Source: Obrimoposthia wandeli
Taxonomy: Eukaryota
Assembly (NCBI GenBank): GCA_977020255.1
Contig: CDROCS010001033.1
Span: 62,001-126,000 of the forward strand
Direction: 5' to 3'
DNA length: 64,000 nt
Positions 1-47,321 of this stretch are shown here, piece after piece; position 1 is the first letter of the stretch; every line of letters begins with the position of its first letter. The notes beneath the pieces were generated by a model. It was not told the origin of the DNA. It did no database searches and saw only the letters and a program-made list of their open reading frames with translations. The position numbers and the translations under genes were made by a program.

Positions 1-76
1 ATTTTAAAAATTATATCTTATTACATCTTGTTATCTTTTTTCTATAAACAAACCCCGTTTAAACTTATTGTTTCAA

Positions 77-349
77 ATGAATAATACTATAAATAGAGAC
101 AATGAAGTGGATCGTCTTGCCGACGAAATATTTTCTGGAAAAATTAGGGTTAAAGAAATTTTATCAGAATTAAAAAATAATGATATAACAAGAGATAACA
201 TTGAAATATTGGTTAGATCACACGTTATTCGAGAATTTAGAAATCGTACACAAATAAATAAAATTATAGCCAAATATTCATTAATTAATTTTTGTATTTC
301 ATCTACAATAGCTTTAACATTGTACATTTCAATAAGGAAACTTCTATGA
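77..349 (+). CDS. Small (about 90 aa) protein with C-terminal hydrophobic segment, upstream of the Polinton ATPase
   Basis: Open ORF ending SLINFCISSTIALTLYISIRKLL with a TATAAA upstream (42-47). It occupies the same position as 7388-7672 in copy 2. Confidence 0.5.
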   Translation: MNNTINRDNEVDRLADEIFSGKIRVKEILSELKNNDITRDNIEILVRSHVIREFRNRTQINKIIAKYSLINFCISSTIALTLYISIRKLL

Positions 350-386
350 TAATATAAACAATATTAAAAATGAAAGAGTATATGCA

Positions 387-965
387 ATGGAGCTAAATAA
401 TAATGCTGTATTTCAAATAGTTGGCCCAAGTGGAAGTGGAAAGACACATTTCGTCAGTAAATTGTTGCAAAATGAATCTCTTTTCAAATCTAGTTTCAAA
501 AATATTTATTGGCATCATGGTGGAGGAGGGGAAAGCGGGTTAACCAAAACACAAGTTTGCAAGTTGAAGGGTATAAAATTTATTGAAGGATTTGATGCAA
601 ATTGGTGTGAAAGATTGAAAAAAGAAGATGTAATAATAATTGATGATTTGTATGAGGAGGCTAACAAGGAATCGGACTTTAATAATTTATTTACAAAGAT
701 TGCAAGACATCGTGAAGTTACAGTTATATTTATCACTCAAAATCTGTTTCACCAAGGAGGTCACCATAGAACAAGAAATCTTAATGTACATTACTTAGTT
801 TTATTTAAAAATCCTAGAGATCAAACAGTTGTTGATTTTATGGCCAGACAGGCATTTCCTCAAAATATGAACTTTCTAGTTGATTCATTCCACGATGCTG
901 CTAAACAAGCACATGGGTATATATTTATTGACTTTACACAAAATAATAAGTTTTACCTAAAATAA
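387..965 (+). CDS. Polinton/adintovirus packaging ATPase (A32/FtsK-HerA-like), C-terminally truncated
   Basis: Walker A GPSGSGKT, Walker B IIIDD, FITQNLF and RTRNLNVHYLVLFKNPRD motifs. It ends after GYIFIDFTQ, where copy 2 continues with DCPDDFRVRTDIF. Confidence 0.9.
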   Translation: MELNNNAVFQIVGPSGSGKTHFVSKLLQNESLFKSSFKNIYWHHGGGGESGLTKTQVCKLKGIKFIEGFDANWCERLKKEDVIIIDDLYEEANKESDFNNLFTKIARHREVTVIFITQNLFHQGGHHRTRNLNVHYLVLFKNPRDQTVVDFMARQAFPQNMNFLVDSFHDAAKQAHGYIFIDFTQNNKFYLK

Positions 966-1420
966 TACATGCATATAATCACTCTGAACATAGAGGTCTC
1001 AAGGGAATGAGACCTGTTGATGTTACTAATAAAAACTCTATGGACATTTGGATGAACAGAAATAAAAAAGATAAAATTAAAAAAGCTAAATATAAGAAAA
1101 ACGAATATGTTCGAATTTCTAAAATCAGCTCTACTCCATTTATTAAAAATTGTGATCAGAATTGAAGCGATAAAATATTTTGTATAAGTAAAATTGATCA
1201 AAAGAGTAATCTAATAATGAATTATATTAAATATGCCTACAATAATATCATCCAGGGTAAATTTTACGAGCAAGAACTGCAAGTAATATCATATAAACCT
1301 AAGGTTTTCCGTATTCAAAAAATATTAAAATCTAAGGGTACTGGTAAACATAAACAATACTTTATTAAATGGTATGGTTATTCAAATCCAACTTGGATAT
1401 CAGCATCTAATATAATATGA
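945..1420 (+). pseudogene. Maverick integrase C-terminal region with chromodomain (disrupted)
   Basis: Translation gives VLPKIIHAYNHSEHRGLKGMRPVDV, YVRISK, QN*SDKIF, then chromodomain FRIQKILKSKGTGKHKQYFIKWYGYSNPTWISASNI. Contains stops and frameshifts. Confidence 0.8.
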
Positions 1421-1534
1421 ATTTTATGTATATGGTTTTAACTAGTAACGGATGCTCGAAGAGTAGGTAGGTGTGGCACTTCTGGAAAAAAGCCCCACCC
1501 CCTGAGGACAAAATGTATTTGTTCTACTTTTAGG

Positions 1535-1770
1535 TGACTCATCGATGACTCATCGAACAAAGACCATGACTCGTCGATGACTCATATCCTTTGTCTCCTA
1601 AAGTGCACATGACTCATCACGTGACCTCACAAGAGGTCAAGGTCATTTCAAGGTCATGACTCATTGCCTTTGATTCATTATACTCATCAGATGAGCCCAT
1701 GTGCGTACTATGAGCTCAAGGTTATTATAAGGTTCATGAGTCCATGTGCTCACCATGAGCTCAAGGTTAT
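1535..1770. promoter_or_regulatory. Cluster of TGACTCA (AP-1 consensus) and AGGTCA/TGACCT half-sites
   Basis: Five perfect TGACTCA between about 1536 and 1664, plus gaggtcaaggtca and tcaaggtca. Function is inferred only. Confidence 0.45.
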
Positions 1771-1773
1771 TAT

Positions 1774-2488
1774 AACATTAGAAATATCAATACCTTAATT
1801 GACTCTTAAGTTCTTAATGACTGTAATGATTTTATTTGTAGAATATTCATGATTGATATATCGTTAATTTCAGTTTAACATCTATGTAAGATTTCATAAT
1901 ATAGTAAAAATTTCTTTAGGTAAATTCTTGGATGTCAGACCAAGATCAGATCAAGCCTAATATATATAACTTTGAAAAGTAGAAAAATTAAATTTTTGAA
2001 GTCCACCCCTGAAGGTTAACCCACGAAGGTTTGACATTCTATCCACTTTGAGAGAACCTCCTTCGAATAACCATATTAAAGAATCGAAGAACAACCTTCA
2101 AAGAACCATCTCAAAGAATTATTTTAAAAGAACAAAATCAAAGAACTAACTTAATAGAACCATCTCAAAGAACCAGCTCAAAGAAGTAGCTTCAAGAATG
2201 AGCTCATAGTTGTGTGCTCATCAGGTTGTCCTTAAAGGCTTTATTCATGTTCTCAGTATGTGAAAGTTCCCATGGGAAAATCAGCATAGAAGAACAAAGG
2301 ACATCACGTGCACGTATGTTGCAAATAGTTGCAAATACTCGCAAATTGAAAATCACACAAAGGCATCACGTGACATTTTTTGTCTCGTCTCGGTGTGTGT
2401 GTGTGTTAATTTCTCTTCCCTGCCGCACACATTCACTCCGAAACAAAACAAGGCAGAGATTTTCTATCTCGTATCAGAGTGTGTATAC
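1774..2488 (+). repeat. Long inverted repeat, arm A (partner 9406-10105)
   Basis: Reverse complement of 9406-10105 matches almost base for base, from aacattagaaatatcaa to gagtgtgtatac. Confidence 0.95.
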
Positions 2489-2861
2489 ATTTGTGTCAAG
2501 AGTTATATCTTCATACAACTTCCAATTGGAGATTGATGAAAATGGCATTCTTCCTCAGATACCAACCAACAAAAACGGCTTAGTGAAATCTGATTTTGGA
2601 ACAATGCATAAAGTGTTGCTAAATTAAAATTATAAAATAGATAAAATTTCTTGTTCATAACCATTTCGGTCTTGCTAATAACTTGGCCGGTGTGGGCTTG
2701 GTGTGGGAATGTCAAATTCAGATAGCTCGGTGGTTCGCTCTAAAGCATGATATAGGTTTTATGTTATTAAGATTAAATAGAAGTGTTATAGAAATACGAT
2801 TGAGATCATTTACTTTATAATTCCATTCCGAGAAAAACGCAATTAAACGAGTTTATGGTCG
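2489..2861 (+). repeat. Dispersed 370-bp direct repeat (second copy 22657-23029)
   Basis: atttgtgtcaagagttatatcttcatac...gagtttatggtcg is near-identical at both sites. Confidence 0.9.
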
Positions 2862-3475
2862 TCGAGGAAAGCATGGATAGAGTTCATCTAAGTGCAAATA
2901 TTTAGTGTAATTTCATATTCAATTATCCAATGAGTATCGTTTGATAACAACAGTACAAATATCCTTGCATGCACTACCTTGCATTACATACCATATGAAT
3001 CACGCATTTCATCATGTAGTCCTCTTCATTCACATAAGTTCAAATTATAAAATACAATTGTCGATAAAACAAAATTACACTAGACGAATCAATAATGTGT
3101 TGTCTATTTTAATCTGTTTAATCCGTAATAGGGAATATAGTAGTTTGCCTTTCCAAAGAGCCAGACATGATGCATTGACACGAATAGTACTGGATGATGT
3201 AGCGAGTAAGTGTCAGAACCCCAAAATGAGAACATAAATATTTATGTCCAATCTGAACGTATCTGAATATTGTCAACATACGAGCAGACGATTTAAAAGC
3301 AGTCTTCGACCTGATAGGTTGTAAAAATAACTTATATGCATATAAATCTCTGCATCAGACTATATATGAAGAGATAAAGGATTTCATCTATACATATATA
3401 CTGAATGGAGCACCCAAGGCTGATTAGTGTGAAGCAAGACAATTATGGTTTTCTAGTGACAGACATCCTTTGGTG

Positions 3476-3584
3476 CTGGTATGATTTAAGAATTGCACAA
3501 CTGCGCCCATGTCTGTGATTCAGAGATCCATTACGGCAAAACCGAAAATACAAAGTAGCTGCAAATCGATCTACTGTTGACTTA
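3476..3584 (+). repeat. Short dispersed repeat (second copy about 30990-31103)
   Basis: ctggtatgatttaag...caaagtagctgcaaatcgatctactgttgactta is shared. Confidence 0.8.
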
Positions 3585-4337
3585 TTTGGTTTAAGAAGAG
3601 AAAAATAGTTTAGGAGGAGGTCCTTCGTATATTGTTCCATTCTCATGCTTGAAAGTGGGTGTTTATCCTTTGATTACGAATTTGTTTTCCTGAAGCGCAT
3701 AGTTGATTCCGAATTGAGTCAAGAGAATATTGATTCTCTCTTTATCCACAGAAGTCAAATTTTATATTTCAAAATCAAATTTAAGCGGCTTGATGTTGAC
3801 GGGGAAAATAAAATTATAGTTATGAGTTTTCTTCAAAAAGTGCATCTCATATTCATAATAAGTATGCATAGGTTGATATAGCTTTTCAAAATTCATATTG
3901 ACAATTATAATTTTAAATATTCAATTGTTTATCCTCTAAAGCTCAATTCTAATTGGTCGATATTCTTGTTTATGAAAATCGTTTAGTCTCAATTGGTTAA
4001 CATTCTTGTTTATGAAAATCGTTTAGTATTAGTCATATCCTTAAAGGGCTTACGTTCTTCGGTCACGCGCGTAGGACTTGTTATTGTTTGACTTGATGGA
4101 TTAATATTTTCTCTCTGATTATTTCTATTATAATTCATAAATTACTACCGGAACCTATATATGTACTAGCTCTACTTTGATTATTTTGATTATTATTGAT
4201 TATCGAAATATTGTTTATACTGCTTTATTTTTAAGACAAAGACATCACATGACTATTCTTGTGAATACTAAGAATGTTACTAAAAATAGATTTTCACTTA
4301 CTATATAAGCTAGACAATTTCATCATTCAATTTTGTT

Positions 4338-5334
4338 ATGACTACTAAATTTATTGCACATTATGTTTCGGAAAATGGAGAACTCAGCATTAGACGACGG
4401 CGTTTTGACAAGATTTCAAGAATAAATGAAAATATGATATATGAAGAAAGAAGATTAGATACATTACAAGCAAAGTTTACTGGTTTAGCGGATAAGAGAG
4501 CTTTAGCAAAAGCAGGATTTTACGGGCACGATGATTCGAAATATAATGTAATGTGTATTTACTGTCTGGGAGCAATATCGGAATGGGAGTACTATCTGAA
4601 ACCAATGAAGCGGCATCAGCTATTTTTCCCAAGATGCCCGTTTGTTTTGAAAATGAATGTTTCAAACGTACCAATAATTGATTCCAGCACCAAGCAAATT
4701 GATTTTGATTCTACTCCAATGGATAAAGTAGTTATTGTACGCAATAATTATTCTAATGATATTGAAACACCTACATTATCGATTTTTGATCATGTATATA
4801 TTTGGAATGATTCTTATCGATGTTGTTTCTGTCAGAAAGCAGTACCCCGACTTGAGTTTATTGATACTATGCCCGAAAGAATCTTTCATACTCGAGATTG
4901 TAAAGCATCTAGTATGGGAATCAAGAACGGATGTATTGTGGAATATCATATTAGTAATGATGAAATTGATGCTCAGATGGAAACTCGTCAAATAGTTTTG
5001 CTGAAACGTGATTATAGTCATGATAGAATCAAGGCCGTTTTAGTTAATAGATTTAAAACATTCGGTAACAAATATGATTCTATTTATGAGTTTATAACGG
5101 ATTTAAGATCTTTAGAAATAAAATCTGAGCCAAAACATCGTATAAATTATCTCGAGTACCTCTTACCAAATCCCGAATGTGTTGTTTGCATGAGCGATGC
5201 GATTTCCGTGGCATTTTTACCATGCGGTCACTTAAACACGTGTATTAAATGTTCAGATCGTTAAATGTCCATATTGCAAGACAATTATCATTAGACGAGT
5301 AAGAAATATTAGATTTCATAGCATAGGCAATTAA
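4338..5334 (+). CDS. iap: Intronless inhibitor of apoptosis (BIR + degenerate second Zn motif + RING), frameshifted in the RING tail
   Basis: BIR: RLDT..LAKAGFY..VMCIYC...EWE...MKRHQLFFPRCPFV. RING: CVVCMSDAISVAFLPCGHLNTCIKC. The ORF stops at 5264, but the last RING cysteines (KCPYCKT) continue in the +1 frame to 5334. Confidence 0.9.
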
Positions 5335-5400
5335 ACAAAGACATGCAATCTAAAAATAGATGTTCAAATAGTATAAATAGAAGAAATCAGTTTATAATAA

Positions 5401-5998
5401 TCAGAAATCCTACTTCACAATATCAAATTCGTGAATATTAATTACAAGGGAATGGTTGTAAGTAACAATCAACACTTACCATTTCGGACTTCGAAGCCTC
5501 ATCAGTATCGACTCAAGTGTGAAGGTTACACTATTATCCTTTTCAAATCTGGTAATTTATTTTACATTTATATATAATTATAATTTAGGTACATGCAGAA
5601 TAATGGGTTGCAAAACAGTGCTGGATGAAAGCAGTCTTCCTTTTGATATAAAAATCGAAAGAATCCAATCAATCAGTCTCAGTAGCAATCTAGAAACATC
5701 AATAAACCTGAACAAGATGAGTAAGAGTATGGCATCGGAAGCTGTTTACGAGACAGAAATCTTCCTGGGACTTCGATACGTCAAATACAATCCACTATGC
5801 GTGAAACTTTTTGCTAGCGGGAAGATTATGATACTTGGTGTTAAATCTTTAAACTATGAGTATCTGATTGAATGTATTTTGTTTAATATAGATCTTCACA
5901 CTTGTGTTATTTATTTCCTAAACCAAATAGTCGTTATGTGGTCTAAAAATAGATTTATCTTAGAGACAAAGACATCACATGTCATTACTTGCAAATAG
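5401..5998 (+). CDS. TBP-like (TATA-binding protein fold) gene with a 37-nt GT-AG intron at 5552-5588; start codon uncertain
   Basis: Splicing gives YTIILFKSG|TCRIMGCKT (cf. TBP LIFSSGKMVCTGAKS). The second repeat is VYETEIFLGLRYVKYNPLCVKLFASGKIMILGVKS (cf. YEPELFPGLIYRM..LIFVSGKVVLTGAK). Confidence 0.8.
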
Positions 5999-6112
5999 TT
6001 GCAAAAGTTGTAATGTTGCTAAAGATAGATTTATCTTAGAGACAAAGACATCACATGTCATTACTTGCAGATAGTTGCAAATAGTTGTAATGTGGTCTAA
6101 AAATAGATTTTT
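5927..6112 (+). repeat. Tandem repeat, about 76-bp unit x2.4, containing ACAAAGACATCACATG and TTGCAAATAGTTG motifs
   Basis: Directly visible. The motifs also occur at 4236-4251 and in the inverted-repeat arms. Confidence 0.85.
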
Positions 6113-6151
6113 CACGAGTTATAAACAATATTTTATTTGCTTTATCATAAA

Positions 6152-6250
6152 ATGGATGAAATTATTGAATGTAAAGAGGTTCAGGATGCATTAAAAGATC
6201 TTGCTTCAGTTATTCTTAATGCTTTAATTAGGAAAAATAATCATGAGTAA
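6152..6250 (+). CDS. Possible 32-aa peptide ORF (MDEIIECKEVQDALKDLASVILNALIRKNNHE)
   Basis: Short open frame right after the shared promoter-like cassette; no recognised homology. Confidence 0.25.
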   Translation: MDEIIECKEVQDALKDLASVILNALIRKNNHE

Positions 6251-6434
6251 TATTTATTTGTAGTTTATTTAACTCTTTAGGTTACGTCATCAATTTCATT
6301 TACATGAGATGTTAAGTACAATGTAAAGGTTGAATAATACTCCAATCAAATCACGCGGCTATGATGAAACTGATGCTCCAATGAAATCAAACCTCGTGTA
6401 GTATATAAGGGTAAATTGACTCTGAATTAATAAA

Positions 6435-7223
6435 ATGGAGAAAATCAATTCAGCATCACCAGCAGCAGCAACATCATCGCCAACAACTTCATCGCCAGCA
6501 ACATCATCACTGGCAGCAGCAGCAGCAACACTATCAGCAGCAACATCATCACCAGCAACAACAACAACAACAGTTATGAGAAGAGAAGAAACTATTGATG
6601 AAGTGATGATAGAAGAAGTTATTATAGATCCGATTATTGAAGAAGAAGATAAGAGACGATTAGATTTTTTAAATGCTTTGGCTTTTATGGAACCCATAAT
6701 AACTCATGCTTCCAGTATGGAAATGAACCATATGACCCATCTTTTTGATAGTTTGTTTAGTGCTAGATTTACTCAACTTAATGTAGAAAAGTTAAACAAA
6801 ACAAATATGAGTGAGATTTTAGTAAATCAAATATATATTGGTAATTATCGAGATGGGTTTGATGAAACTACACTTTTGAACTCCAATTTCACTCATGTAA
6901 TCAATACATCTATACTGGATAAGATATCTTATAAGAAATTAAAGTATACTTCTGTCTTTGTAAACTCAAAATTAGGAGAAACAATAATGAGATATTATAA
7001 ACAGACTAATAATATAATTAAAGAAACTATCGAAAATGGTGGTAAGATTTTAGTATGTGGTCATTATGGTAGTTTATATGCTGCTTGCATTGTTATTGCA
7101 TTTTTATCTCATTCGATGGGTGTTACTGCTGCTTCCAATCTTGTTAAAGCTAAACGGACTATTGCTGCTTCTAATGAAGCTATGTTTCATCAAATACGTA
7201 TTTTTAATCGCTATCATGTGTAA
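6435..7223 (+). CDS. Dual-specificity phosphatase-like protein lacking the HCX5R catalytic motif (pseudophosphatase), with Ser/Thr/Ala-rich N-terminus
   Basis: SEILVNQIYIGNY..FTHVIN..GGKILVCGHYGSLYAACIVIAFL..VKAKR..SNEAMFHQI follows the DSP consensus, but VHCxxGxSRS is replaced by VCGHYGSLYA. Confidence 0.85.
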   Translation: MEKINSASPAAATSSPTTSSPATSSLAAAAATLSAATSSPATTTTTVMRREETIDEVMIEEVIIDPIIEEEDKRRLDFLNALAFMEPIITHASSMEMNHMTHLFDSLFSARFTQLNVEKLNKTNMSEILVNQIYIGNYRDGFDETTLLNSNFTHVINTSILDKISYKKLKYTSVFVNSKLGETIMRYYKQTNNIIKETIENGGKILVCGHYGSLYAACIVIAFLSHSMGVTAASNLVKAKRTIAASNEAMFHQIRIFNRYHV

Positions 7224-7240
7224 ATTTTATTCTACTTTAT

Positions 7241-7328
7241 CTTTATTAATCAGTGTATTTATTAGTCAGTGTCTTTATTAGTTAGTGTCTTTATTAGTTA
7301 GTGTCTTTATTAGTTAGTGTCTTTATTA
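7241..7328 (+). repeat. 16-bp tandem repeat (ctttattagttagtgt) x about 5.5
   Basis: Directly visible between the DUSP-like stop and the next TATA box. Confidence 0.9.
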
Positions 7329-7387
7329 ACCAATCAGATTTCAGATGTATAGTATATAAACAGATTACTTTTTACTGCTTCTTCATT

Positions 7388-7672
7388 ATGTCTACTCCAA
7401 ACTATTTCAAGCAAGATGTTGACAAGGCGGTGAAGAACTTCATCTCGAAGAATGTCATAGAAGAAGATGTCCTGAAACTCATTGATGTTTCAAATCTACC
7501 CCTGGAGGAACACGTAAGAAGAATGGTGCACGACAAGGCAGTCAATCTTCTCATTCTGGGATACAATCAGAAGAAAGAACTTGCAAAGAAAGAAGAGAAA
7601 AGGAGCTTTTTCTACGAGAATAGTTTTTTATTGTTTCTTAGTGGATGTATTTTAATAAAATATTTTAAATAG
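7388..7672 (+). CDS. Small (94 aa) protein with C-terminal hydrophobic segment, upstream of ATPase copy 2
   Basis: MSTPNYFKQD...SFLLFLSGCILIKYFK, with GTATATAAA upstream; syntenic with 77-349. Confidence 0.55.
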   Translation: MSTPNYFKQDVDKAVKNFISKNVIEEDVLKLIDVSNLPLEEHVRRMVHDKAVNLLILGYNQKKELAKKEEKRSFFYENSFLLFLSGCILIKYFK

Positions 7673-7715
7673 TTTTGTCTTATAAACATTATCCCGATAA
7701 TCTAATATTTTTAAT

Positions 7716-8371
7716 ATGAACTTAAAAAATAATTCAGTTTTTCAGATTGTAGGTCCTAGTGGTAGTGGGAAAACACATTTTGTATGTAAATTACTGCAAA
7801 ATAATAAATACTTTACTTTTAAGTTTAATAAGATATACTGGCATTAGGGAGGAGATGGAGAAGCCGGTTTAACCAGTAAAGAGTTTAAGAAAATCAAAAA
7901 ATATAAAAAGTCATTAATGGATTCGATGATAATTGGTCTGAGCGATTACGTCATGATGTTATTGTTATTGATGATTTATATCAAGAAGCAAATAAAGAGA
8001 GTGCTTTCAATAATTTATTCACAAAAATAGCACGACATCGGGATGTAACTGTTGTTTTCATCACACAAAATCTATTTCATCAAGGAGGGAACCATAGAAC
8101 TCGTAAGTTAAATGTACATTACCTTGTTCTCTTCAAGAATCCACGTGATCAGACGGTTGTTGATTTTGTTTCAAGGCAAGCTCATCCGATAATAGAAAGT
8201 TCCTAATTGATTCATTTCAAGATGCAACTACTATTCGTCATGGATACATTTTTATTGGTTTTACTCAAGATTGTCCCGATGACTTTAGAGTTAGAACTGA
8301 TATATTCAATCCATCAGGAATTACCGTCTATAAACAAACAAAGAAACCAGTTTCTCGAAGATGAATTTTAA
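7716..8371 (+). pseudogene. Polinton packaging ATPase copy 2 (in-frame stop plus frameshifts)
   Basis: GPSGSGKT, IYWH*GG, VIDDLY, FITQNLFHQGG, YLVLFKNPRD; clear paralog of 387-965. Confidence 0.9.
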
Positions 8372-8789
8372 AAAGGAAGCTGTTAAATCTGAAGTTAAAA
8401 AATTGATTAAATCAGTTTTAAGTGCAAGGAAAATGGTTGCTCAAAAATCCTATAAGAAAAGAACTGTTGTTAAGAAATCTAGGAGTATTGCCTATTTCAA
8501 TTCTCTCATGCGTGCACCTGCTATTCGCCGCCCAGCTATTCTTAAATCATTCCCTACTTTTGTAATTGATGATTTACTTAATATGATACAGAAAATAGTT
8601 TCTGGTAAAATAATTGTCAAGGATAACATGAATCGGCATAAGAAACCTCTACTTGCTTTGTTTCACGCCAAAACACGGATCGGTAAACGTAAGTTACTTT
8701 ATAAGCAAAGTGGTGGATTTTTAGGATTTCTCGTACCAATTATTAGCTCAATAGTTGGTGCACTTGCTAGTAGACTAATAAAACGATGA
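8361..8789 (+). CDS. Basic Polinton core protein with adenovirus pX-like C-terminus
   Basis: Lys/Arg-rich protein ending KQSGGFLGFLVPIISSIVGALASRLIKR, resembling adenovirus pX (GG-ILPLLIPLIAAAIGA) with a possible protease site at xGG|F. Confidence 0.7.
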   Translation: MNFKKEAVKSEVKKLIKSVLSARKMVAQKSYKKRTVVKKSRSIAYFNSLMRAPAIRRPAILKSFPTFVIDDLLNMIQKIVSGKIIVKDNMNRHKKPLLALFHAKTRIGKRKLLYKQSGGFLGFLVPIISSIVGALASRLIKR

Positions 8790-8886
8790 TTATAAACATA
8801 AATTCGATTCAAAAATATGAATTTATATATGGGATCACATCCATCTATTCCTAAATTCAATATAAAAATCAAATCGTCTTGCTGTA

Positions 8887-9390
8887 ATGGAGAAAATATG
8901 GTTCGATCCAAGTTACACAAAACACTCAAAATTAGCAAAAGAGTCAAAGAAGGGGGGAAAGGAAACTCAGGCGTGGTTGAGAAATCAATTAGCTTACAGC
9001 TTAAACAAACCAATGAGACGTCGGTTCCCAACGAGATCATACAAAACAAGCGGCCCGAATGATTTATGGCAAGCAGATTTGATAAAAATGATTCTGTATG
9101 CGAGTATTAACGGTGGATATCGATATATTTTAACTTGTGTTGATGTCTTTAGCAGATTCGCGCGAGCTATTCCATTAAAGTCTACGTCTGGTATCGATGT
9201 TTTAGCTGCAATGAAGCTTTTGATTAAAGAAATAAAACCAAGAAATTTCCAAACAGATAATGGAAAGGAGTTTTATAATAAACATGTTGGAACACTATTG
9301 AAAAAACATAATATTAATCCTTACTCTGTATTTTCCCAATATAAAGCTGCTTTAGATGAACGTTTTAATCGAACATTTCCCCGGCATTGA
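8887..9390 (+). pseudogene. Maverick retroviral-like (DDE) integrase, N-terminus and core, truncated just after the catalytic Glu
   Basis: WQADL, YILTCVDVFSRFA, FQTDNGKEF, ERFNRT. The sequence breaks about 30 nt before the inverted-repeat arm at 9406. Confidence 0.9.
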
Positions 9391-9405
9391 GTGCTTCACT
9401 TGGTC

Positions 9406-10105
9406 GTATACACACTCTGATACGAGACAGAATATTTCTGCCTTGTTTTGTTTCGGAGTTTATGTGTGCGGCAGGGAAGAGAAATTCACACACACACACC
9501 GAGACGAGACAAAAAATGTCACGTGATGCCTTTGTGTGATTTTCAATTTGCGAGTATTTGCAACTATTTGCAACATACATGCACGTGATGTCCTTTGTTC
9601 TTCTATGCTGATTTTCTCATGGGAACTTTCACATACTGAGAACATGAATAAAGCCTTTCAGGACAACCTGATGAGCACACAAATATGAGCTCATTCTTGA
9701 AGCTACTTCTTTGAGCTGGTTCTATTAAGGTAGTTCTTTGATTTTGTTATTTTAAAATAAATCTTTGATATGGTTTTTTGAAGGTTGTTCTTTGATTCTT
9801 TAATATGGTTATTCGAAGGAGGTTCTCTCAAAGTGGAAAGAAAGTAAAACCTTCGTGGGTTAACCTTCAGGGGTGGACTTAAAAAATTTAATTTTTCTAC
9901 TTTTCAAAGTTATATATATTAGGCTTGATCTGATCTTGGTCTGACATCCAAGAATTGACCTAAAGAAACTTATACTATATTATGAAAACTTACATAGATG
10001 TTAAACTGAAATTAACGATATATCAATCATGAATATTCTACAAATAAAATTATTACAGTCATTAAGAACTTAAGAGTCAATTAAGGCATTGATATTTCTA
10101 ATGTT
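9406..10105 (-). repeat. Long inverted repeat, arm B (partner 1774-2488)
   Basis: Near-exact reverse complement of arm A. Confidence 0.95.
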
Positions 10106-13053: not shown

Positions 13054-13222
13054 GAAGAAAGATGCGAGGCCAATTTCTTAATAAGGTACCACCAAAGCAA
13101 CGTAGGGAAAACGGTGCTACTATAAAGTATCACCTAAATAATAAATATGTTATAGTTAAGGTGCTAAAAATTTATTAAACGTAAGTGTAGATTCAAATAT
13201 TGAAAATATTTTAAAATCAGAA

Positions 13223-13741
13223 GTGACTAAATTAGGACAGGCTAAGGTTCAATTTTGCGCAACAGTGCAGTTTAAAAATGTCAATGAGGAGACTAAAACT
13301 TGGGTAATTTCACATAAAGCAACTGTTTTCTATGATAATTTTGTAACTGAAATTGGAAGAAACCTAGATGAAAAAATTGCTGATTATAGCGAGTTAAGTA
13401 GTGGATGGACTGTAGTTAGAATTCACGATGTTAGCTTTGTTCTAACAAAGTTCACTGACATGATATATCTTTCTGGGAGTTCATACATTACTTCACCTAG
13501 ATCTCTTCAACTTTCACGTTCCATTGTTAACATACAAAACAGTGATAACCTTTGCTTTCTGTATAGCGTGTTGGCCATCCTCAAAATGGGTGTAATTACT
13601 GTACATAGAGAGCGTGTCAGTAAATATACCCCTTTTTTAAATGAATTGCAGTATCATGGAATATATTTTCCTGTTAAATTAACTGCGATATCAAGATTTG
13701 AACATCTTAATAACTTGAGTATTAATGTATTACTTGAATAA
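13223..13741 (+). pseudogene. N-terminal region of Polinton/adintovirus-type protein-primed DNA polymerase B polyprotein (truncated)
   Basis: SSGWTV..GSSYITSPRSL..SIVNIQNSDNLCFLYSVLA..RERVSKY..IYFPV..RFEHLNNLSINV matches the pattern I recognise from invertebrate Polinton-type PolB ORFs. The catalytic polymerase domains are absent. Confidence 0.7.
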
Positions 13742-17297: not shown

Positions 17298-17937
17298 ATA
17301 GTAATCAGACAAGTGTGGAAGCTAAAATCGTAAAGAATAACTATAAGCTAGAAACACATGTCGCTGATGACGTTCTGTATGTTGAAGAAAAACCTTTGCA
17401 AGATTCGAATAGTTCATACGCCAGTAACATGGACCTCAATGATATCAGTTTTGTGCCAGTAGACAGAGTCAACGAATTGTGCCAGTCTCACAATTTGTCA
17501 ATGAGTGATGAAGCTCACGACTACTTGAAGAGAGCCAGCACACAATTTCTGCATCACATATTGAGTCAGGCATTTATTGCTGCAAAAGCCAGAGATCTAG
17601 TCAATGAAGTCCTGCGTTCGGATAGACACAAGCTACGGATGATCCCGAATCCGGTAACATGCTAGTTACAAATTCACATACCGTTGACGGTATCACGAAC
17701 AGAACGTTGCAATCTTTAAGGGAATCAGGGACTACGCAAACATTGTTGCAAGAATTCATAAATATCAAACCAAAAATACCAGCGAAGATTATTGATCCGC
17801 CAAAGGAACAGAAACAAGTGAACCATAAAGTTCGTATCACCACCAAACAACTGATATTGGTAATACAAATGCACAAGGCCGCGGACCAGCTTACATGTCT
17901 GAGAACATTCAAGGACCTGCAGAACAAGATTGGATGA
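17298..17937 (+). pseudogene. TAF4-like histone-fold gene copy, 5'-truncated, with a 1-bp frameshift near 17660
   Basis: Near-identical to 33608-34248; aacatgct here versus aacattgcc in the intact copy. Confidence 0.8.
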
Positions 17938-18890
17938 CTCTTCCAAGTTACAATATCCTCTAAAACATTATTATATTCTACTACGTTGTATTACTTATTT
18001 ATTTATCTTAATTACGTATTTAGTAACCTCTCATCATATTTTGTGATAAAAAATGCAAATCATTGATCCAAACACAACGAATTATTGATGTAACAATTCT
18101 TTTGATGACTTCTTAATATTAATTCATTAAACTTCCACTCATTCAATATTTTTAGCATCTTTTAAAAATACGACTTTTATGTGTCTACCAATTCTCCCAT
18201 AAATGTTTTCTTATTAGAATCACTGATGGTTGTACTTCAAAAATCACTTGTGAATATCACCTGTAAGAACCAAAATTCATTATCAAAGGAAATGATGCCA
18301 TTTTCAGAAATATCAATTGATAAAACTAAATGTCCTCCCAATTGTATTTCAATTGAATATCAATATCAAGATAGAATGATACAAGATCGGACCAAGCGGA
18401 TTGGTAATTCATGTTCGGAAAATATTCGAATGAGCTAATAAATAAACGTTATATATTCATATCTTTATTTTCACGATTATAATTATTTATTAATATTTAA
18501 TAAGAAAGAAGCCTGAAAGTTAAGGTTATAAATATAATGATAGAAATATTGATATTTTTTTGAATCAGATGATTCATGAAACGATAGACAGAGAAATGAT
18601 AGTAATGAATAGTAATATGAATAAAATTGTGAGAAACTACGCTATCTTTAGAAATATCAAACCTATACCCAATGATGACTCAATCGTCAATGGCTACTTG
18701 ATAGAATGGATGTAGATGAATCAATAAAATACTTATGATGAATTACGTACATTATTGTTAAGTTCAAATAATCAAGGTTCTATCGGAATTTTACAACATG
18801 TGTAATGATATAGATGAAATGTGTATTATTGCTAATTTTGGTATAAGATTCTTTGAGAGAGTATATAGGATTATAACCTGTTATAATATT
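17298..18890 (+). repeat. About 1.6-kb segmental duplication of 33608-35190
   Basis: Colinear match from atagtaatcagacaag through the TAF4-like ORF and about 950 bp of downstream non-coding DNA. Confidence 0.9.
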
Positions 18891-18986
18891 AAGATAACTA
18901 TATTTAAAGAACTACCTTAAAATAATCTCCCTAAAGAACTACCTTAAAATAACCTATTTAAAAAAAACCTTTATAAAGTCATTGAT

Positions 18987-19320
18987 TGCATCATATATTG
19001 AGTCAGGCATTTATTGCCACAAAACACAGAGATCGATTCAATGAAGTCCTGCGTTCGGAGACACAATCTACGGAGGATCCCGAATCCTGGAACATTGCTA
19101 GTTACAAATTCACAAATTGTTGAGGGTATCACGAACAGAACGTTGCAATCTTTAAGGGAACCAGGAACTACGCAAACATTGTTGTAAGAATTCAAAAATA
19201 ACAAGACAAAAATACCAGCGAAGATTATTGATCCGCCAAAGGAACAGAAACAAGTGAACCATAAAGTTCGTATCACCGCCAAACAACTGGTATTGGCAAT
19301 AGAAATGCACAAGACCGCGG
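18987..19320 (+). pseudogene. Third, more diverged fragment of the TAF4-like gene
   Basis: tgcatcatatattgagtcaggcatttattgc...gaaatgcacaagaccgcgg matches 33860-34197, with indels and a stop. Confidence 0.85.
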
Positions 19321-24900: not shown

Positions 24901-27900
24901 ATCTAAAAATAATAAAAAATCTAAAAAATCAGTGGCCTTTACGGAATGTGTTTAACAACTGGAAACGATGGCAAAGCTCGAGCAGCGAAGATAAAAGTAG
25001 GAAGTAAAGAAGAGACCAAAGCGTTGGTAAAGTAGTGTAAGTTAAAATTCTAAAGGGATATATAAATATAGTTTGATCCTAGTTGAATCAAATGTGAGAG
25101 TATGTAAGAAGATGTAAATATATTAAATTACGATTAAAGTAAAACAGACCACAAACTTATGGTATACCGACATTCTACATAAAAAGGATATTTTGTGAAA
25201 CTAAATGATATGTGATCTTTGTTTTAAACAACACAAAAACAAAAATGTTTATATGGTGGTATATGAAAATTGTTATGAAAACAAAATGTTAATGTGAAAC
25301 GATTTATGGAAATTTTTTGAGCTAATATCATATGTTTAATGCTGAATAAAGTTATATCTTATGATTTTATGTTTGATTCTACAATGGATTTAATAAGGAT
25401 TTACGTGAAGATTTAAACACCCTTTATGGATTTGACTAATATTAAACAAATTTCATAAATATTGCAATCCAATTAGAATAAAGCTCTATAGGATAAACAT
25501 TTACATATTTGAAAATATTATTGTAAATATGAATAAAGAAAATCTCTAACAACGTGTACATAAGTATTATGAATATTTGTTGCATTTTTGAAGAAACATC
25601 AAAACTATAATTTAATTTTTCCTGTCAAAATAGAGTTTAAATTTGATCATCAGATTATCAGCTCCCTGTGGATTGTTGACTCCTATATGAGAAATAGTGG
25701 ATTAATATATTTTTTTATATTTATTTTATTTCAAAATAAAACATATTTTTTTAATTAACTGTAACGTAAAATATTTTTAAATAACTGCAGCGTAGATAAT
25801 TTCATTCAATCAATATATATATACTATCCAATATGACGGACAATACAATGATGATAAAAGTTTAATAAAGATTTAACACATCCGGTAATTCGAAGGAAAA
25901 TAAAATTGATAAAGAAAGATAGTAGAAAAAGTGATATGTCAATGGTTTAACGATATAATAAATTTTAAGGAAGTAATATTTGTGGATGTAGTCACATTTT
26001 CTTTAGATGAACCTCAGTATTGCCCCTCTTGAAAGTTAAATGAAGTTGGGCCATCTGATTTTTGTAACAGAAGACCACATAAAGGTTGTTATGGTATGTA
26101 TGGCTATACGCATAAATGGTTTATTAGGGTTTCAGAAAATAGTTCAATCAATAGCTCAAGATGTATTGACTTTTTAAGCGACCAACTTATTTCTAATCTT
26201 ACTTAACGATCAATTTTGCAACATGACACTTTTAACTTTTAGTTATAATTAGTGAGTAAACACCGGCAATATTTTACCGGTTATTACCGGTAATGAAAAA
26301 CATTCTATTTGCCGGTACTGGAAGCCTTATTACCGGTAATATACATTTATTTTAAATATTAGGAAAAACTTTTATTAATAGGCAGCTAGGTTATGTGACT
26401 TATGTCCTGGTTTCCAAATTGAAGTCAGTCACTCAGTCAGAGTGGTTGTGCTGTGCGTGATTTCTGCTCTCTGCTTGCCAGTGTCTCTGTATACTAGATA
26501 AATTTGAAAACGTTCATAACTTCATACTGAAGCCTAGCATAACTTCTTCATTATAGTACATTTGAATTCAATTTATTGAAAATTTTACAATCCCCCATTA
26601 TGAGTAAAAAGAAATCAAATGTGTGGCAGTATTTTTTAAGAAAAAGTAAAGACGAAGCAGAATGTTTACAATGCAAAAAAGGACTTAAATGTGTTGGCGG
26701 TTCAACTTCTGGCTTGAAGGCCCATACGAGTAAAGTTCATAATATAACTAGTGAAGATGAAACAGATCACTCTAGTAAAAGCATTAATAGTAATACTTTA
26801 GATAAATATTTAGCCAAGAAGTCTCTTGATAATGAAATTGCAAGAATGGCATGCAAGGATGGGCTTAGCTTTAAACAAATTGCATCAAGCGAATTTATTC
26901 AAAGACATTTGGCAACAACTGCTTATGACAAAATACCACCAAGTACTGGAACTGGTGTTAAAAATTCGGTTATAAAACATCATGAAACAGAGAAGGCAAT
27001 ATTAGCTAAATACTTCTCAAATCAAATTCAAAATGGCCGCTGATTTTCACTTACTATCGATGAGTATACTTCTTCACAGAATCGACGCTTCATGAATATT
27101 AATGTGCATGATAAGGATAAATATTGGTCTCTTGGACTAATAGTAATTTCAGGTTCTCTAAACAGCAAAAAAGTCACTACTCTTGTTAAAGGAAGATTAA
27201 ATGAATTTAATTTAGACTTACATTGCCATGTAGTAGGTGTTACTACAGACGGAGCTTCATTAATGGTCAAGTTTGGTAGAGAAAACCAATTTATTCATCA
27301 ACTGTGTCTTGCACATGCTTGTCACCTGAGTATTTGTGATATTTTCTATGGAAAAAAGCAACTTGTAGAAGAGGAAACGGAAATAACTAACACAAATGAG
27401 GAAGAATTAAATCACATTCTTGAAGATTGGGACGATTGTAGTATTCCTTTGGATATGGCATTTGTTAGTGAAGAAGTTCAACATGAAGACAGTCCTCTAA
27501 TTAATCAAGGTAACTATGATGAGATAATTTCAAAAGTTCGTAAAATCTGCAAGGCCTTTAGAAAGTCACCTTTAAAAAATGATTATCTGCAGGAGATTGT
27601 TAAAGCTAACATGAAAAAAGAGATGAAATTAATCCTGGATACCAAAACAAGATGGAATAGCACCATTGCAATGATTAAGAGATTTTGTGAACTGAAGAAA
27701 TGTATTCCTGCTGCTTTAAGAAGATGTGAAATTTCTGAAGTAATTACTGAGAACGAATGGAGATATTTAGAGGATCTTGTACAAATGCTCCGACCTTTGA
27801 AATTGTCATCAAGGGACTCTCTACAGAAGATGCTACAATTTTGAAAGGAGAACAATCAATGAAATTTGTTATGAGTGAATTAAAATCTCAAAGTTCTATA

Positions 27901-30900
27901 TTGGCTTTAAAATTAGAAGAAAGCTTGCATAAGCGCTATACATCAAGAAGATTGAAGACGGCAATTGGATTAATCAAGTACTTGGAAGACCCTGATATAT
28001 TACATGATTTACATCCAAATGATACGGCCGATCTTTTTCATTTGCCTACGCCTAAAAATGTCAAGAAACTGGCAGTAGCAACATTCAAAAGATTGTATAC
28101 ATTAAAGGTGGAAACTCAAGAAGAAGAAAGGTTTCACGACTATATCGAGGTCTTTCACGATTCTTCAGCACATGAAATTACTGATCCATTGCTTAAAAAG
28201 TATGAAGATGAAGTTACTAATAAAAATAAAAGAGTCAAGCTATCTCAGCCTTCTGATGTCAATCTAATGAATAAAATGAAATTTTATGAGGCAACTAGAA
28301 AGCGAACAGAAAATATTGAATTGCTGTATCAGTCATTGCTGACTATTAAAGCCACTAGTGTAGAATCAGAACGGGCTTTCTCTGCGGCAGGATATTTTTT
28401 AACTAAGCTTCGTTCACAATTAGCTCCAAAGACATTGGATGCATTGAGCTGTATGCGCTGTTTTTATAATAACAAATAATGCTTGGTTATTAAATAATAA
28501 ATTTATTATTTAATAACCAAAGGAAATTATAGTTATTATTAGTCATTTTTCAAAGTTTGTTTTGTTGCATCAGGAATGATTTGTTTTTTAATTAACAAAT
28601 AATGCTTGGTTATTATTAGTCATTTTTCAAAGTTTGTTTTGTTGCATCAGGAATGATTTGTTTTTTAATTTATTATTTAATAACCAAAGGAAATTATAGT
28701 TTTTACTAGTCATTTTTCAAAGTTTGTTTTGTTTTTTAATTTTCTGTTTGAGTTCAACTTTTGTTCGAATATTCAATATAAAATTATAATGTGAAAACTA
28801 AGTATTTTTTGTGAACTCCTTATAAATACGCACCTAAAAACTACCTATACAGCAAAAAAATAAATAATTAGGAAAAACCGGTAAATACCGGTAATGATAT
28901 ATAGCTGTCGGTAATTTACCGGTAATTGAAAACACCGGTAATGTTTGACCCCTAGTTATAATCAATTATGTTTGTGTTTGAATATACAATTGTTTAAATA
29001 CATAAATGTTGACAATAGAAAACTCGCAGTTATTTAAAAATTTATCAAAATTGTAATTTTTTCAAACTTTTATATAGATTTGATGTTATTAAAAATGAAC
29101 ATAATCATTTAACACTAATATGCAAAAATATGTACAAGTGAGTTAATACTTAATGTTGGATAATTCTATTATTTTGAAAATGAATTTTATAATTATAAAC
29201 ATCAAATATTATATGTAAATGGATTTGTTTTAATAAATTATTTATTAAAGGCACTAAGTTTGAAATATTAAATGATTATTAATACATTAAAATCACATTT
29301 TTTAAAATTTTAAGTGTAATAAAATTACTGTTTCGAATATACATTTATATAAATACATCAATATAGATTATGTAAAACTTGCGGTAAGTTATATATTTAT
29401 TAAAATTGTTATTTTATTGCGAAGAGTTTAAATTTTTCTTTAATTTTATTTCAATAAATTGTACTTTAATATTTTATTTTAAAAATGCGTTGTATAATTT
29501 TTTTTTCATTTTTTGTTTAAAAATAATTTGTATAAATACATCAAAAGAAGCAATGAAATCCGTACACTAAGTTAAATATTTACCCAAAATTGGGAAGTCT
29601 TTTATGAGTTTAGGAAGAGTTTATATTAAATTTTATGTAATTACCTTTTTTAAAAAGGTTTGTTATTAAATTAAAAATATGTACAAGTGAGTTAATACTT
29701 AATGTTGGATAATTCTATTATTATTACCACAATTTTGTATTTTTCGTTCTATTGACCTGTGTATTTATCCGTTTTTTTACATTTTATTGCGAGTATAAAA
29801 TCTAACTGCAGACCTGTGAACGACACAAGTTAATTGAACACAAAACTTCAGGCCACAAATAGACACAATTTTATTTCTTTATACAACCTCGAATTGACAT
29901 ACAAATAGTAACAATTTTAGTGAATTATAATTTTGGTGAAATATAATTATCTATAACACGCTTTATTGTAACATTACTGAATGGAGAGTTTGAAGACGAA
30001 AAGAATCTCGAATTTATCCACCGAACAAAAGACACAATTTCCTAGAATTGTGAAACTAGAGAAGACACAATTGCGGAGGTTTCTACAAAAATACCGTAGG
30101 AGCGATTAACTATTAGCATGAAATAGTTGTATTACAAAACAAAATCGACATGGTAATCCAGACTCATCACGGTCCTAAGTTCCCAACTGCGCTACATTTA
30201 GTATAAAAATAAGACAAAACGAGATCCATCCGAAAATCATCCAAAATTATTTATTTATAGTTTTATATGTGCCTGCAGTGAAATTGTCAACAAATGGGTT
30301 AGCAAAAATACATAAGCCAAATATAGTTTTAGACAATTTTCCAAATTTTGGATAGTGAATAATCCTGGAACAATGCTTGTGATGTATAGAGCTGCAATAA
30401 AATATTATTAGCGGTGACGCCTGTTAATTTGATTTTTGCATTGGCAACGTGTTTATTTTAGCAGCATAAGCAGCAAATGATTTACCAATGAGGCCTATAA
30501 ATTTTTTAGATTCTAACAAAAGCATATGATGCGGTATTCACTACATCGTCTATATGAAGAGAAATAATATAGATGGATGAACATTGAACAAACATTTGCA
30601 GCAATGTTCATGGGTAAATAATAATTTTACTACAATAAGAATATGAATAACTATATGAAAAATTATTTTAAAAAATCGAAGGTGTGGAGGAAAAACCCAG
30701 CAAGAAGATAGAACCTCGGCTGTGAATATTGTATCGAAAGTTAGATTGTTATAGAAATTAACTTTTTTTCATTTTCTTCCGAATGCTTTTGTTAGGGTTA
30801 GGATTTATTAAAAAAATAGAAAAAATAGAACCCTGAAACCAATGTTAAAGAGAAAAAAATAAATAAATACAAATTTTAATTAAAATAAAATCGAATGTAA

Positions 30901-33900
30901 TAAAATTAGAATAATTTTAGGACCTTGAGAGTTCATGTTTGTTGTGTAAGTGTTTAAAGAGAGTTTAAATTATTAGAAAGCCCCCAGAAGCTGGTATGAT
31001 TTAAGAGAGATTTGCACAACTGCGCGCATGTCTGTAACTCAAAGATTCATTACGGCAAGACCGAGAATACAAAGTAGCTGCAAATCGATCTACTGTTGAC
31101 TTATGTAATACATATATTTCTGATATCTCTCGACCAGGTTCGTTTTCGATTGTCGATGTAATGTTGATTGAATTTTATGGACGAGTTTGATTTCATTAGT
31201 ACATACTTTTAAGGTAGTAAATACCGTATGAAAGTAACTTGGTTAGTTGACAATGACAATAAATAAAACCACTATAGGTAGCTTTAGTAGCAATTACAGT
31301 TTTAAAGCATCTTTGCAATTAATGAACTATAATGTTCATATTTTACTTTCTTAAAATAAACATATTTGTAACAAATCTATTATATTTTTATGTATACGTT
31401 TATCTTCAAAATTTTCAGCATACCAATATTATTTATAAATGTATAACTTATTTTCGTAAATCTTAGATAATTAAACTCCCGCCTAATTTATGGAACAAAT
31501 TGAAAAGAATGTACGTACGTTGAAGGTTACTTAAAATTAAAAAGTAACCTCAATAGAAAGCACATAATTACATAGAATATTATTTAAGAATTTCGACAGG
31601 AAACATTGTATTTAGTAATATCTAAAAACGATGTAGACTGGGTGTTTCTGAAGCGGTTAAAGATAGTCATTGTGGCAATATTGACTTAAAAATAAGAAAG
31701 ATTAAAAAACTGAACACTTGGCTTGAGTATAATAGAAACATATCTTCATAATACAGGTATCTCATCTGAAATTAGTTCTTCAGAAGAATTTCGAATTAAT
31801 AACAATTTTATTAGTGTTCTTGAATCTGATAATAATGTGCAAAATAGAATATTGAAAGTTGATACTGATCATTTATTTGTGGAATCCGTTCTAAAACATT
31901 TTAATAATATGAGTATGAATTATTTCATTCAAAAATATAGGAGTAGTGAAATTAAGAAGTCATGAAAAACTTATGAAATTTTCATCTTCCTTGAAAATGC
32001 TACTTAAATAAAGTGACGGCGCAACTATGATTCCTGTGTCTTAGAATGAGAAATACTGCTTCGGCATAAAATCTCAAATCATCAAAATGTATGTATATGA
32101 ATTTTTGCTCTAGTTTCTGCATTTGTTCTATTGCATACATTTTGTGTTGCTATTTTAATAATTTGGGGTTTATGGACGCCGCTGAAGCACACCAGATTTA
32201 AGCATTCTCACATAGAATTATAACACGACGTTAGATAATTTTTAACATTGTCTATGAAACGCTGGTTTTGCTTGAACCACTAAACCCTATTTTGAGCTCT
32301 AACTGTTCTCGAAATAAACTTGCTCTATTCCTCTTAATCCCAAAGTTGTACACAGCCTCTGCAATTGACTGTACAGTAGTTATATTTGACTACATTTGAT
32401 GAATACCTTAAGAGGCATCAGACCCCATTCATCAACAAAACTATTTGGGTTCCTGCCAACATTACTAACACAAAATGATTCTACACTTCGAAACCTTGAC
32501 AATTATCAAGAAACTCAATACAAATATACAACTCTTCCACGGTTGCAGCTCTTATAGTCCATCAACTCATAAACACACACACACAAAAATGAATCAACAA
32601 TGGTCAATTGGCCAATGACAAACACTTTAAAGTGCAAACACAAAACATTCGGCTTCAATTGGCCAATTTTTATTGACGTAATCACATGATTCAGAAATTT
32701 GCATAATCCCTTTTTTATGATCATAATTTGTAGTTTAGAGTACAGATGATTAATTCTGTTCTAATTTGAACACTAACTGTTTCGTCAACTGTTTCGCGCA
32801 TTCACCTGAGACTATTAACGAACTTTATAAATTGGTTTCTTGTATTGTCGAAAGGTTCTTGGCAACATTAAACTTGACATATACTGCATAAGTAAAAAAA
32901 TTAAGATTTAGTTGTTTTTGTAGCCAACTTTCAAAACTTGGAGAATTGTTAAAAGTGAAACATTACGTTCAATTTTCTAGATGATGCAGTTGAAGACTTT
33001 TCAATTATCTCTCGAACAAATTTAATAACTTTTCTTTAAAAAGACAATCTATATGTGTATATAACGATTCTCTCACAAATGTTTTCTTATTAGAATAATT
33101 GATGGTTGATATTTGTTCCTCTGTTCGACCATTCCCAATTTAATGTCAATGTTAATCGAATTTATTTTTATTACATTTATGCAAATATTTCAAGTTAAAC
33201 TCAATAACTTCTTTTAAATAACCTTAATCATTCATTAAATTTAAAATATAAACTTCAATTTGTACATTATTTTTTATGACTTGTAATTGAATAAAAAGAA
33301 TAGTTTATTTAAACAAAAATATGCACAACTTTCAAATATTTTTATTTAAAATATTTTAGAGATTTTTTTACAATTTCGAAAAAGTAAAATATTTTTTGTT
33401 TGTTATTAATAATTTTACTAAAATACTAATGTAAAATAAAACTCAAGAATAAACAAATGAATATAAATCAAAATCGTGAAAAGAAAGTGAGTTATGTGAA
33501 AGGATCTGTCTCGTAAAATATTAAAAAACCAAAACGACCAAGTCCATCCAGAGATATGGAATGTGTTCCGATAAAGAAAATCAAGTTATCTTCTTATCAA
33601 AGTGTTGATAGTAATCAGACAAGTGTGGAAGCTAAAATCGTAAAGAATAACTATAAGCTAGAAACACATGTCGCTGATGACGTTCTGTATGTTGAAGAAA
33701 AACCTTTGCAAGATTCGAATAGTTCATACGCCAGTAACATGGACCTCAATGATATCAGTTTCGTACCAGTAGACAGAGTCAACGAATTGTGCCGGTCTCA
33801 CAATTTGTCAATGAGTGATGAAGCTCACGACTACTTGAAGAGAGCCAGCACACAATTTCTGCATCACATATTGAGTCAGGCATTTATTGCAGCAAAAGCC

Positions 33901-46418: not shown

Positions 46419-47215
46419 TTGCCGATACTAGATCACTTTCAAAACAAAGATCAAACAAATGATCATAAGGCTGAAACCATCGCGAAGGTTTTAGTCGAAA
46501 AAATTATTTTTACTTTCGGTGCACCCCGAAAATTATTAACCGACAAAGGTCCTGAATTTATAAATAATGTATTAGCGTCAATAGCTGAAATTTTTCACAT
46601 AAAAAAGATCAATACAACACCATATCACCCTCAAACCGACGGATTAGTAGAAAGATTTAATAGAACCCTCGAAGATATGATGGGATCATACACAAACAAC
46701 AACCAAACAGATTGGGATTTACATATACCTCCATGCCTTTTTGCCTTTTTGCATATAGAACATCAGTACATGCATCTACAGGAGAAACATCTTTTTACCT
46801 TATGTGCCTCAGAGATCTTCAAATGCCTATTGACCTAACATTACTACAACCTACTACACAGTACCTAGAAATACCTGAATACAAAATAGAAATAAGAGAA
46901 AGAATAAAACTAGCATTCGAAAAAGCTAAATTATTTTTAAAAAACATACAAGAAAATTTCAAAGAATATTATGATAGAAGAACTAAGCCATCAAATATAA
47001 AAATTGGAAGTAAAGTAATGATTCACAATCCACAAATCTATGTAGAATTATCACACAAATTATCAAAACCATACAAAGGACCATATACAGTCATTAGTAC
47101 CAATGGAACTAACATAACAGCTAAACTCGACAATGAACCAAAATCAAAAGAAATAAGAACACATATGTCGAGAAATACCAGAGGAAAATACAAAAGTAAA
47201 AAGTCACAAATATAA
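46419..47215 (+). pseudogene. Ty3/Gypsy integrase core and C-terminus (5'-truncated, frameshifted by an 8-bp duplication)
   Basis: LLTDKGPEF, TTPYHPQTDGLVERFNRTL, YRTSVHASTGETSF, KLSKPYKGPY; gccttttt duplicated at 46735-46750. Confidence 0.92.
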
Positions 47216-47321
47216 CTTAAGATCAACTAACAATAATACTGTTCTACAAATGTTAACTATAAAAAACTCACAAAAACAAAACAAGACTAAATTGAGTCAT
47301 CAAACTAAAAATACAATAAAA

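Follow-up and report, generated by a model that had tools for sequence, protein, structure and literature searches.

What can a DUSP gene do once its whole active site has been replaced, and how does such a gene come to be carried by a mobile element? The locus studied here raises this question, as an open reading frame in the window (the whole stretch of 64,000 nucleotides of Obrimoposthia wandeli DNA that was analysed) encodes a DUSP domain in which the catalytic motif has been replaced. We refer to it as the pseudo-DUSP, and its parts are as follows.

6435..7223, + strand: pseudo-DUSP ORF, open, 262 aa, intronless
6442..6581, + strand: 15-nt tandem repeat encoding a Ser/Ala/Thr low-complexity N-terminus with four S/T-P pairs (residues 1-50)
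6630..6782, + strand: two predicted helices, residues 66-116, pLDDT ~68
6804..7220, + strand: DUSP catalytic-domain fold, residues 124-262, from the model and Foldseek
6966..6968, + strand: general-acid position, Ser178 (Asp in 147 of the best 150 of 402 relatives)
7053..7082, + strand: replaced P-loop VCGHYGSLYA, residues 207-216 (His at 215 in most copies)

Residues 133-258 match Pfam DSPc (E=1e-11, 45.2 bits versus a cut-off of 33.5), and the AlphaFold2 model of residues 119-262 has a pLDDT of 91.1 and a pTM of 0.88, with an input alignment of 65 of the 150 relatives that were picked mainly for short length and are active DUSPs. In Foldseek the model matches SSH2, DUSP22, MKP5 and STYX (2r0b) with a TM of ~0.86 and giant-virus DUSPs with a TM of up to 0.89, while the best solved relatives by sequence are DUSP19, DUSP10, and DUSP22. 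The open 262-aa frame with a DUSP fold that had been predicted is therefore confirmed by the ORF, the Pfam match, and the fold model; NCBIfam and PHROGs gave nothing beyond DSPc. The N-terminal 15-nt repeat differs in length among copies, with lower contig depth and joints at 6492-6529 and 6511-6469. No known family matched residues 66-116, and an atlas search with residues 48-125 gave a best score of 0.82, which is at most a lead. The homodimer prediction for residues 56-262, run without an alignment, scored 0.17 against a mark of 0.32. Directly 3' of the stop codon there is a 16-nt tandem repeat (7224-7344), the length of which is also variable among copies.

The active site was compared in an alignment of the query with the best 150 of the 402 relatives passing E 0.001. 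In these best 150 of 402 relatives the P-loop columns hold the canonical His in 142, Cys in 144, Gly in 149, Ser in 143, Arg in 148, and Ser in 142, and HCx5R is present in 136. Of the six active-site residues, none is lost in 125 of these relatives, one in 19, two in 3, and three in 3. Not one of the best 150 of 402 has lost more than three, whereas the pseudo-DUSP has lost all six (Asp to Ser178, His to Cys208, Cys to Gly209, Ser to Leu214, Arg to Tyr215, and Ser to Ala216); Gly212 of the P-loop is retained. Both marks of active DUSPs, the HCx5R(S/T) P-loop and the general-acid Asp, are absent. Residues 205-218 contain no Lys or Arg, and the Arg-positioning Phe, which is Phe in 143 of the best 150 of 402 relatives, is Met. 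We considered a shifted register with Cys208 as the nucleophile, which is rejected because a Leu follows six places later and the register is set by the conserved Gly212. A compensated frameshift over the P-loop is rejected as well, as the alignment is ungapped there and L206, V207, G212, and A217 are kept. The predicted change of VHCxxGxSRS into VCGHYGSLYA is correct, but Tyr215 is private to the window copy. The Asn that had been placed at the general-acid position was misassigned, as the Asp column corresponds to Ser178, one residue after that Asn.

The genes around the pseudo-DUSP indicate what carries it.

1774..2488, no strand: left arm of a 700-bp inverted repeat, with 25 mismatches in 700 (3.6%)
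4338..5264, + strand: IAP (BIR + RING) with a frame break within the RING; TATATAAG box at 4302
5519..5998, + strand: TBP-like ORF with one TBP repeat
6152..6250, + strand: 32-codon ORF behind a TATAAACA box
6402..6409, + strand: TATATAAG box, 33 nt before the pseudo-DUSP ATG (nearest variant place listed, 6410, is outside the box)
7388..7672, + strand: 94-aa ORF with a hydrophobic C-terminus, behind a TATAAACA box
7716..8340 (end approximate), + strand: A32-like packaging ATPase, broken, with a stop at ~7845 and frame breaks at ~7900 and ~8185
8361..8789, + strand: basic 142-aa ORF with a weak adenovirus protein X match (E=0.006, below cut-off)
8887..9390, + strand: rve integrase fragment, cut at the right arm (Pfam rve, E=7e-14)
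9406..10105, no strand: right arm of the inverted repeat, starting just after the cut-off integrase

Mavericks/Polintons (adintoviruses) share long inverted repeats, an rve integrase, an A32-like ATPase, a pX-like ORF, and an IAP (PMC8502044, partial text). Here the 700-bp inverted repeat brackets the genes; an AGTAGG-type end was found at 1462 only, with neither outer termini nor a target-site duplication recognized. Between the repeats there is no ORF of at least 80 aa for polymerase B, capsid, or protease, and a polymerase-motif scan was empty. Because these genes were not found between the arms, we conclude that the pseudo-DUSP sits in a truncated Maverick/Polinton-like element, not a complete one, that belongs to a very high-copy family. 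The pieces of the broken ATPase are 50-82% identical to the ORF at 387-965, which is itself above the Pox_A32 cut-off and is the ATPase of a second, diverged Maverick-like element at 1-1440. When the two ATPases are compared over 94 codons, synonymous change is saturated and the non-synonymous difference is 13%. This second fragment (1-1500) also carries a small hydrophobic-tail ORF and a decayed integrase-like stretch, and the AGTAGG-type end at 1462 belongs to it. The surroundings look like an AT-rich, repeat-rich animal genome, and the window copy itself is decaying.

Other copies of the family were followed with contigs from four runs, all on a single sample from one study, mapped on 6200-8450 (25,395-31,998 contigs each); no RNA run was listed as containing the stretch. 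The summed contig depth in X1 is ~1e5-4e5, and the 32 long pieces listed have a depth of 4-16. The summed depth is not a copy number, and contigs with many local differences map less well; we read these values as a family of thousands of copies or more. The DUSP domain and the ATPase are covered to the same depth (2.9e5 versus 3.0e5), so the pseudo-DUSP is a regular part of the element family, and a one-off captured host gene is rejected. The variant places listed are 40 of 195, apparently those with the highest share (lowest ~0.6-0.7), and 11 of them lie inside the ORF. Among these 40, a single active-site row was found, at residue 215, where His makes up 99.5% of the X1 depth, not Tyr and not Arg; codons 178, 208-214, and 216 have no variant row among the same 40 of 195 places. 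The P-loop shows no depth dip, and no loose end among those listed. It is possible that a minority of copies carries the canonical motif or other alleles at the active site. Within 18 nt, the codons of this copy are at least 10 base changes away from the family residues, compared to a repeat divergence of 3.6% (P<1e-8 even at 5%). This is far past post-insertion decay, which places the loss of the active site in the replicating lineage. Single-nucleotide indels within the gene occur in other copies, at ~1-15% of depth at 6741/6742 and 4-7% at 7101. As for the check proposed with the original prediction, whether the dead motif is fixed or this copy is just mutated, the motif looks family-wide and predates the insertion. 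These data support a pseudophosphatase with a dead site that appears to be family-wide and older than the window insertion and with its fold kept.

The active-site columns are kept in 0/6 cases versus 13/19 for the other conserved columns, defined as those conserved in ≥85% of relatives (p=0.005; a stricter threshold gives 0.011), a comparison in which the choice of the 150 relatives by similarity to the query inflates the count kept at fold columns. The BLOSUM score is non-negative in 18 of these 19 columns. Among the six that are altered, one is the Arg-positioning Phe and another is private to the window copy. Hydrophobic columns are still hydrophobic in 35 of 41 cases. In the quick tree the end branch of the pseudo-DUSP measures 2.34 changes per column versus a median of 1.06, and it falls in no starred group of the quick trees. 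Of the 11 private variants of the window copy in the ORF, 7 change the residue and 4 are synonymous (omega 0.50, p=0.28); two private changes sit where most copies carry the family-typical residue. The consensus of a diverged subfamily (X4, 30 nt, 10 contigs, agreement 0.85) keeps 7/10 residues over 13 base changes. The chance probability for this stretch is ~3e-4 to 6e-4, and synonymous change is enriched in it; the X3 version is out of frame. With the break rate taken from the six other genes (4 breaks/3229 nt), a 789-nt frame would be open with a chance of ~0.38, or of 0.29 when TBP is scored as broken; four pairs of assumed rates give values from 0.39 to 0.03. In the window copy, four of these six genes are unbroken, with the integrase piece open only up to its truncation, and the ATPase breaks, like Tyr215, are absent from most copies. 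The original prediction had set the open frame against the decay of the neighboring ATPase. That decay is real (one stop and two frame changes), but the contrast carries no weight because an open frame is expected by chance (~0.3-0.4). We infer that selection retained the fold while the pocket was released, and the open frame in most copies, despite the distance from all relatives, would imply selection while the element was active.

The upstream boxes suggest a division among the genes. TATATAAG stands before the IAP (36 nt) and the pseudo-DUSP (33 nt) only (2/2). TATAAACA is found with genes of the packaging/core type (6 of 8 on the + strand of 1-10105; background rate 0.057), namely the two ATPases, the pX-like ORF, and three small ORFs, in each case 32-35 nt ahead of the start codon. 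At face value, TATATAAG would group the pseudo-DUSP with the IAP as an early, host-directed gene and not with the virion genes, with two genes as the basis for the promoter classes and with motifs chosen after inspection. The six ORFs behind TATAAACA (43-8800, + strand) belong to two Maverick-like elements with a TBP-like gene alongside, and the box may be an element-specific late promoter. A 60-nt motif is also shared upstream of the IAP and of the 32-codon ORF/DUSP (4213-4275, 5943-6005, and 6019-6081). Part of it recurs in the inverted repeats (2319-2344 and 9548-9573), possibly as an enhancer.

Several explanations other than a working host-directed protein have to be weighed. The captured DUSP may have lost its use and ride along in the element as a released remnant, with its fold residues not yet eroded. 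The long branch, the changes in 6/19 of the other conserved columns, an omega on the private changes that does not differ from 1, the 1-nt indels inside the gene in other copies, and an open frame that chance would give in the window copy all agree with this. We nevertheless consider it unlikely, if the least unlikely of the alternatives, as the losses cluster in the active site (p=0.005) and changes elsewhere are conservative. The protein is far from all relatives and yet has no stop or frameshift in most copies, from which we infer selection; synonymous change is enriched in the subfamily stretch, and post-insertion decay is expected for all genes of an inserted copy. Alternatively, the protein may serve as an adaptor, structural or in the virion, in the manner of the BmNPV PTP, which binds ORF1629 and acts without enzyme activity. 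A captured viral phosphatase as a virion protein has a precedent (PMC3320614, partial text), and the gene lies directly upstream of the ATPase/pX-like block. The pseudo-DUSP, however, lacks the TATAAACA box found before the ATPase, pX-like, and small ORFs, the BmNPV PTP is still active, and the AcMNPV PTP needs its catalytic Cys for its effect on behavior (PMC3471939, partial text), and we rank this reading below the remnant.

The original prediction favored a decoy that ties up phosphorylated MAPK/STAT-like proteins in the manner of a STYX-like trap, which would act via the pocket or MKP-type docking. Like STYX, the pseudo-DUSP has Gly in place of the Cys, and Gly212 is kept in a loop whose backbone amides can bind anions (PMC4802042, partial text). 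One loose D-motif-like match (73-84) accompanies the four S/T-P pairs in residues 1-50, and a 32-row quick tree does not reject descent from STYX (p-AU 0.435). Against this, the Arg, Ser, Asp, and Arg-positioning Phe are all replaced. A trap for phospho-residues would need the P-loop Arg. This Arg coordinates phosphate, and in MKP7 the Phe positions the catalytic Arg (PMC4802042, partial text). STYX, STYXL1, and STYXL2 all keep Gly-Ile-Ser-Arg (PMC8269279, partial text), of which the pseudo-DUSP has only the Gly. The FXF-type docking segment starting helix 5 reads EAMF versus LNFM in MKP5, and Asp at the place of this first Glu disables MKP7 against JNK (PMC4802042, partial text). There is no rhodanese or kinase-binding domain (DSPc only in Pfam), the D-motif match arises in 9.7% of shuffles, and the sole STYX-like relative, P0105, ranks 111th among the best 150 of 402. 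The absence of a basic P-loop residue and of a kinase-binding domain, together with the Glu in the FXF segment, therefore makes a phospho-MAPK trap unlikely, and we place it just after the virion adaptor. The pseudophosphatase part of the prediction holds, with six active-site residues replaced; the STYX-type phospho-MAPK decoy does not, with no Ser-Arg and docking features missing, and this mechanism is its weakest part. A decoy that acts via surfaces outside the pocket is possible. The pocket may also have been rebuilt, with Cys208, His210, and, in most copies, His215 as a metal, redox, or small-ligand site. Three possible ligands do cluster in the P-loop of most copies, but a Cys at the His column is also found in relatives that keep the Cys and Arg (P0028 and P0041), and of all these readings a rebuilt pocket seems to us the least probable.

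A phosphate-blind interaction module has an even chance of being the right description, in our estimate. The pseudo-DUSP would then be a DUSP-fold protein under an IAP-type TATA box that modulates host signaling, as an accessory gene of a high-copy family. Partners would be bound via surfaces outside the pocket, namely, the domain surface and the helices at 66-116. More tentatively, the protein might be expressed early, along with the IAP, from a host-type TATA box, and it could possibly damp host stress or death signaling while the element replicates. Anti-apoptotic genes are carried by Polinton-type elements (PMC8502044, partial text). A bolder version would have the IAP and the fully rebuilt DUSP, possibly with a Cys/His site, act as early-gene Polinton signaling antagonists; the DUSP would bind a host stress-kinase or death-pathway protein in a manner unlike STYX and would have aided germline amplification to thousands of copies. 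We regard this version as improbable, below the remnant and above the virion adaptor. If the pseudo-DUSP is a working gene, host signaling joins the functions served by the accessory genes of these endogenous viruses, and the protein would be a natural case of the DUSP fold being used without any phosphate recognition. With so many copies of the element, selection would be easy to test.

Neither pseudophosphatases nor phosphatases captured by viruses are new in themselves. STYX, STYXL1 (MK-STYX), and STYXL2 have, like the pseudo-DUSP, a DUSP fold without the catalytic Cys, which is Gly in STYX, and proteins of this family act through protein binding (PMC8269279, partial text). With Gly-Ile-Ser-Arg intact, STYX is one change from activity, whereas in the pseudo-DUSP the Asp, His, Cys, Ser, Arg, Ser, and Phe are all replaced; the STYX proteins are also host genes, and the pseudo-DUSP is element-borne. 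Judged by the motif test, the pseudo-DUSP is not a STYX-family member. The best sequence and fold matches are the atypical small DUSPs (DUSP19 and DUSP22), the MKP5/MKP7 catalytic domains, and the giant-virus DUSPs, in which the domain likewise stands alone. The pseudo-DUSP is 21-36% identical to the relatives listed and differs from these DUSPs in its altered FXF segment; no relative that is >36% identical was among the matches listed after a search of 1.84 billion representatives. The baculovirus PTPs (BmNPV and AcMNPV) are virus-captured, and their role can be catalysis-independent (PMC3320614, partial text), but their motif is intact and the enzyme is active, with catalysis needed in AcMNPV (PMC3471939, partial text). 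The only baculoviral entry among the closest fold matches listed is the Antheraea pernyi NPV phosphatase, at rank 29.

For the elements themselves, the searchable text of the adintovirus paper and one supplement mention IAP and Bcl2 and no phosphatase, the gene-map figures not being searchable (PMC8502044). The word phosphatase is absent from the main text of two preprints (10.1101/2024.03.25.586562 and 10.1101/2023.10.06.561300). The titles and abstracts listed by full-text searches of open papers name no DUSP in a Maverick, Polinton, or adintovirus, and an earlier description of a Polinton DUSP is possible. Word-based protein searches gave no relative of residues 75-262 among 262 candidates or of the pX-like ORF among 31 candidates. 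Locus searches for DUSP relatives found none in viral contigs (20 stretches) or metagenomes (59 stretches), that for the element ATPase found none, and that for the integrase gave one marginal match (L001). An orthologue of the pseudo-DUSP from another species was in none of these results. What appears to be new, within these searches and the 150 relatives compared, is the unusually complete pseudophosphatase, with all six active-site residues lost, in a Polinton-like element.

Elsewhere in the window, the ORF at 13160-13741 resembles what we take to be the region preceding polymerase B in Polintons. It has no Pfam, NCBIfam, or PHROG match, and there is no polymerase motif nearby. A 1.6-kb unit is repeated at 17298-19320 and 33556-35196 with 93% identity, and the ORF in it has a weak histone-fold match (E=5e-4, below cut-off). 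A hAT transposase is present in three pieces at 26576-28479. The stretch at 46419-50590 contains retroviral-type integrase pieces; behind these lie an unknown ORF of 444 aa and one of 375 aa that has an RNase T/DEDD exonuclease domain.
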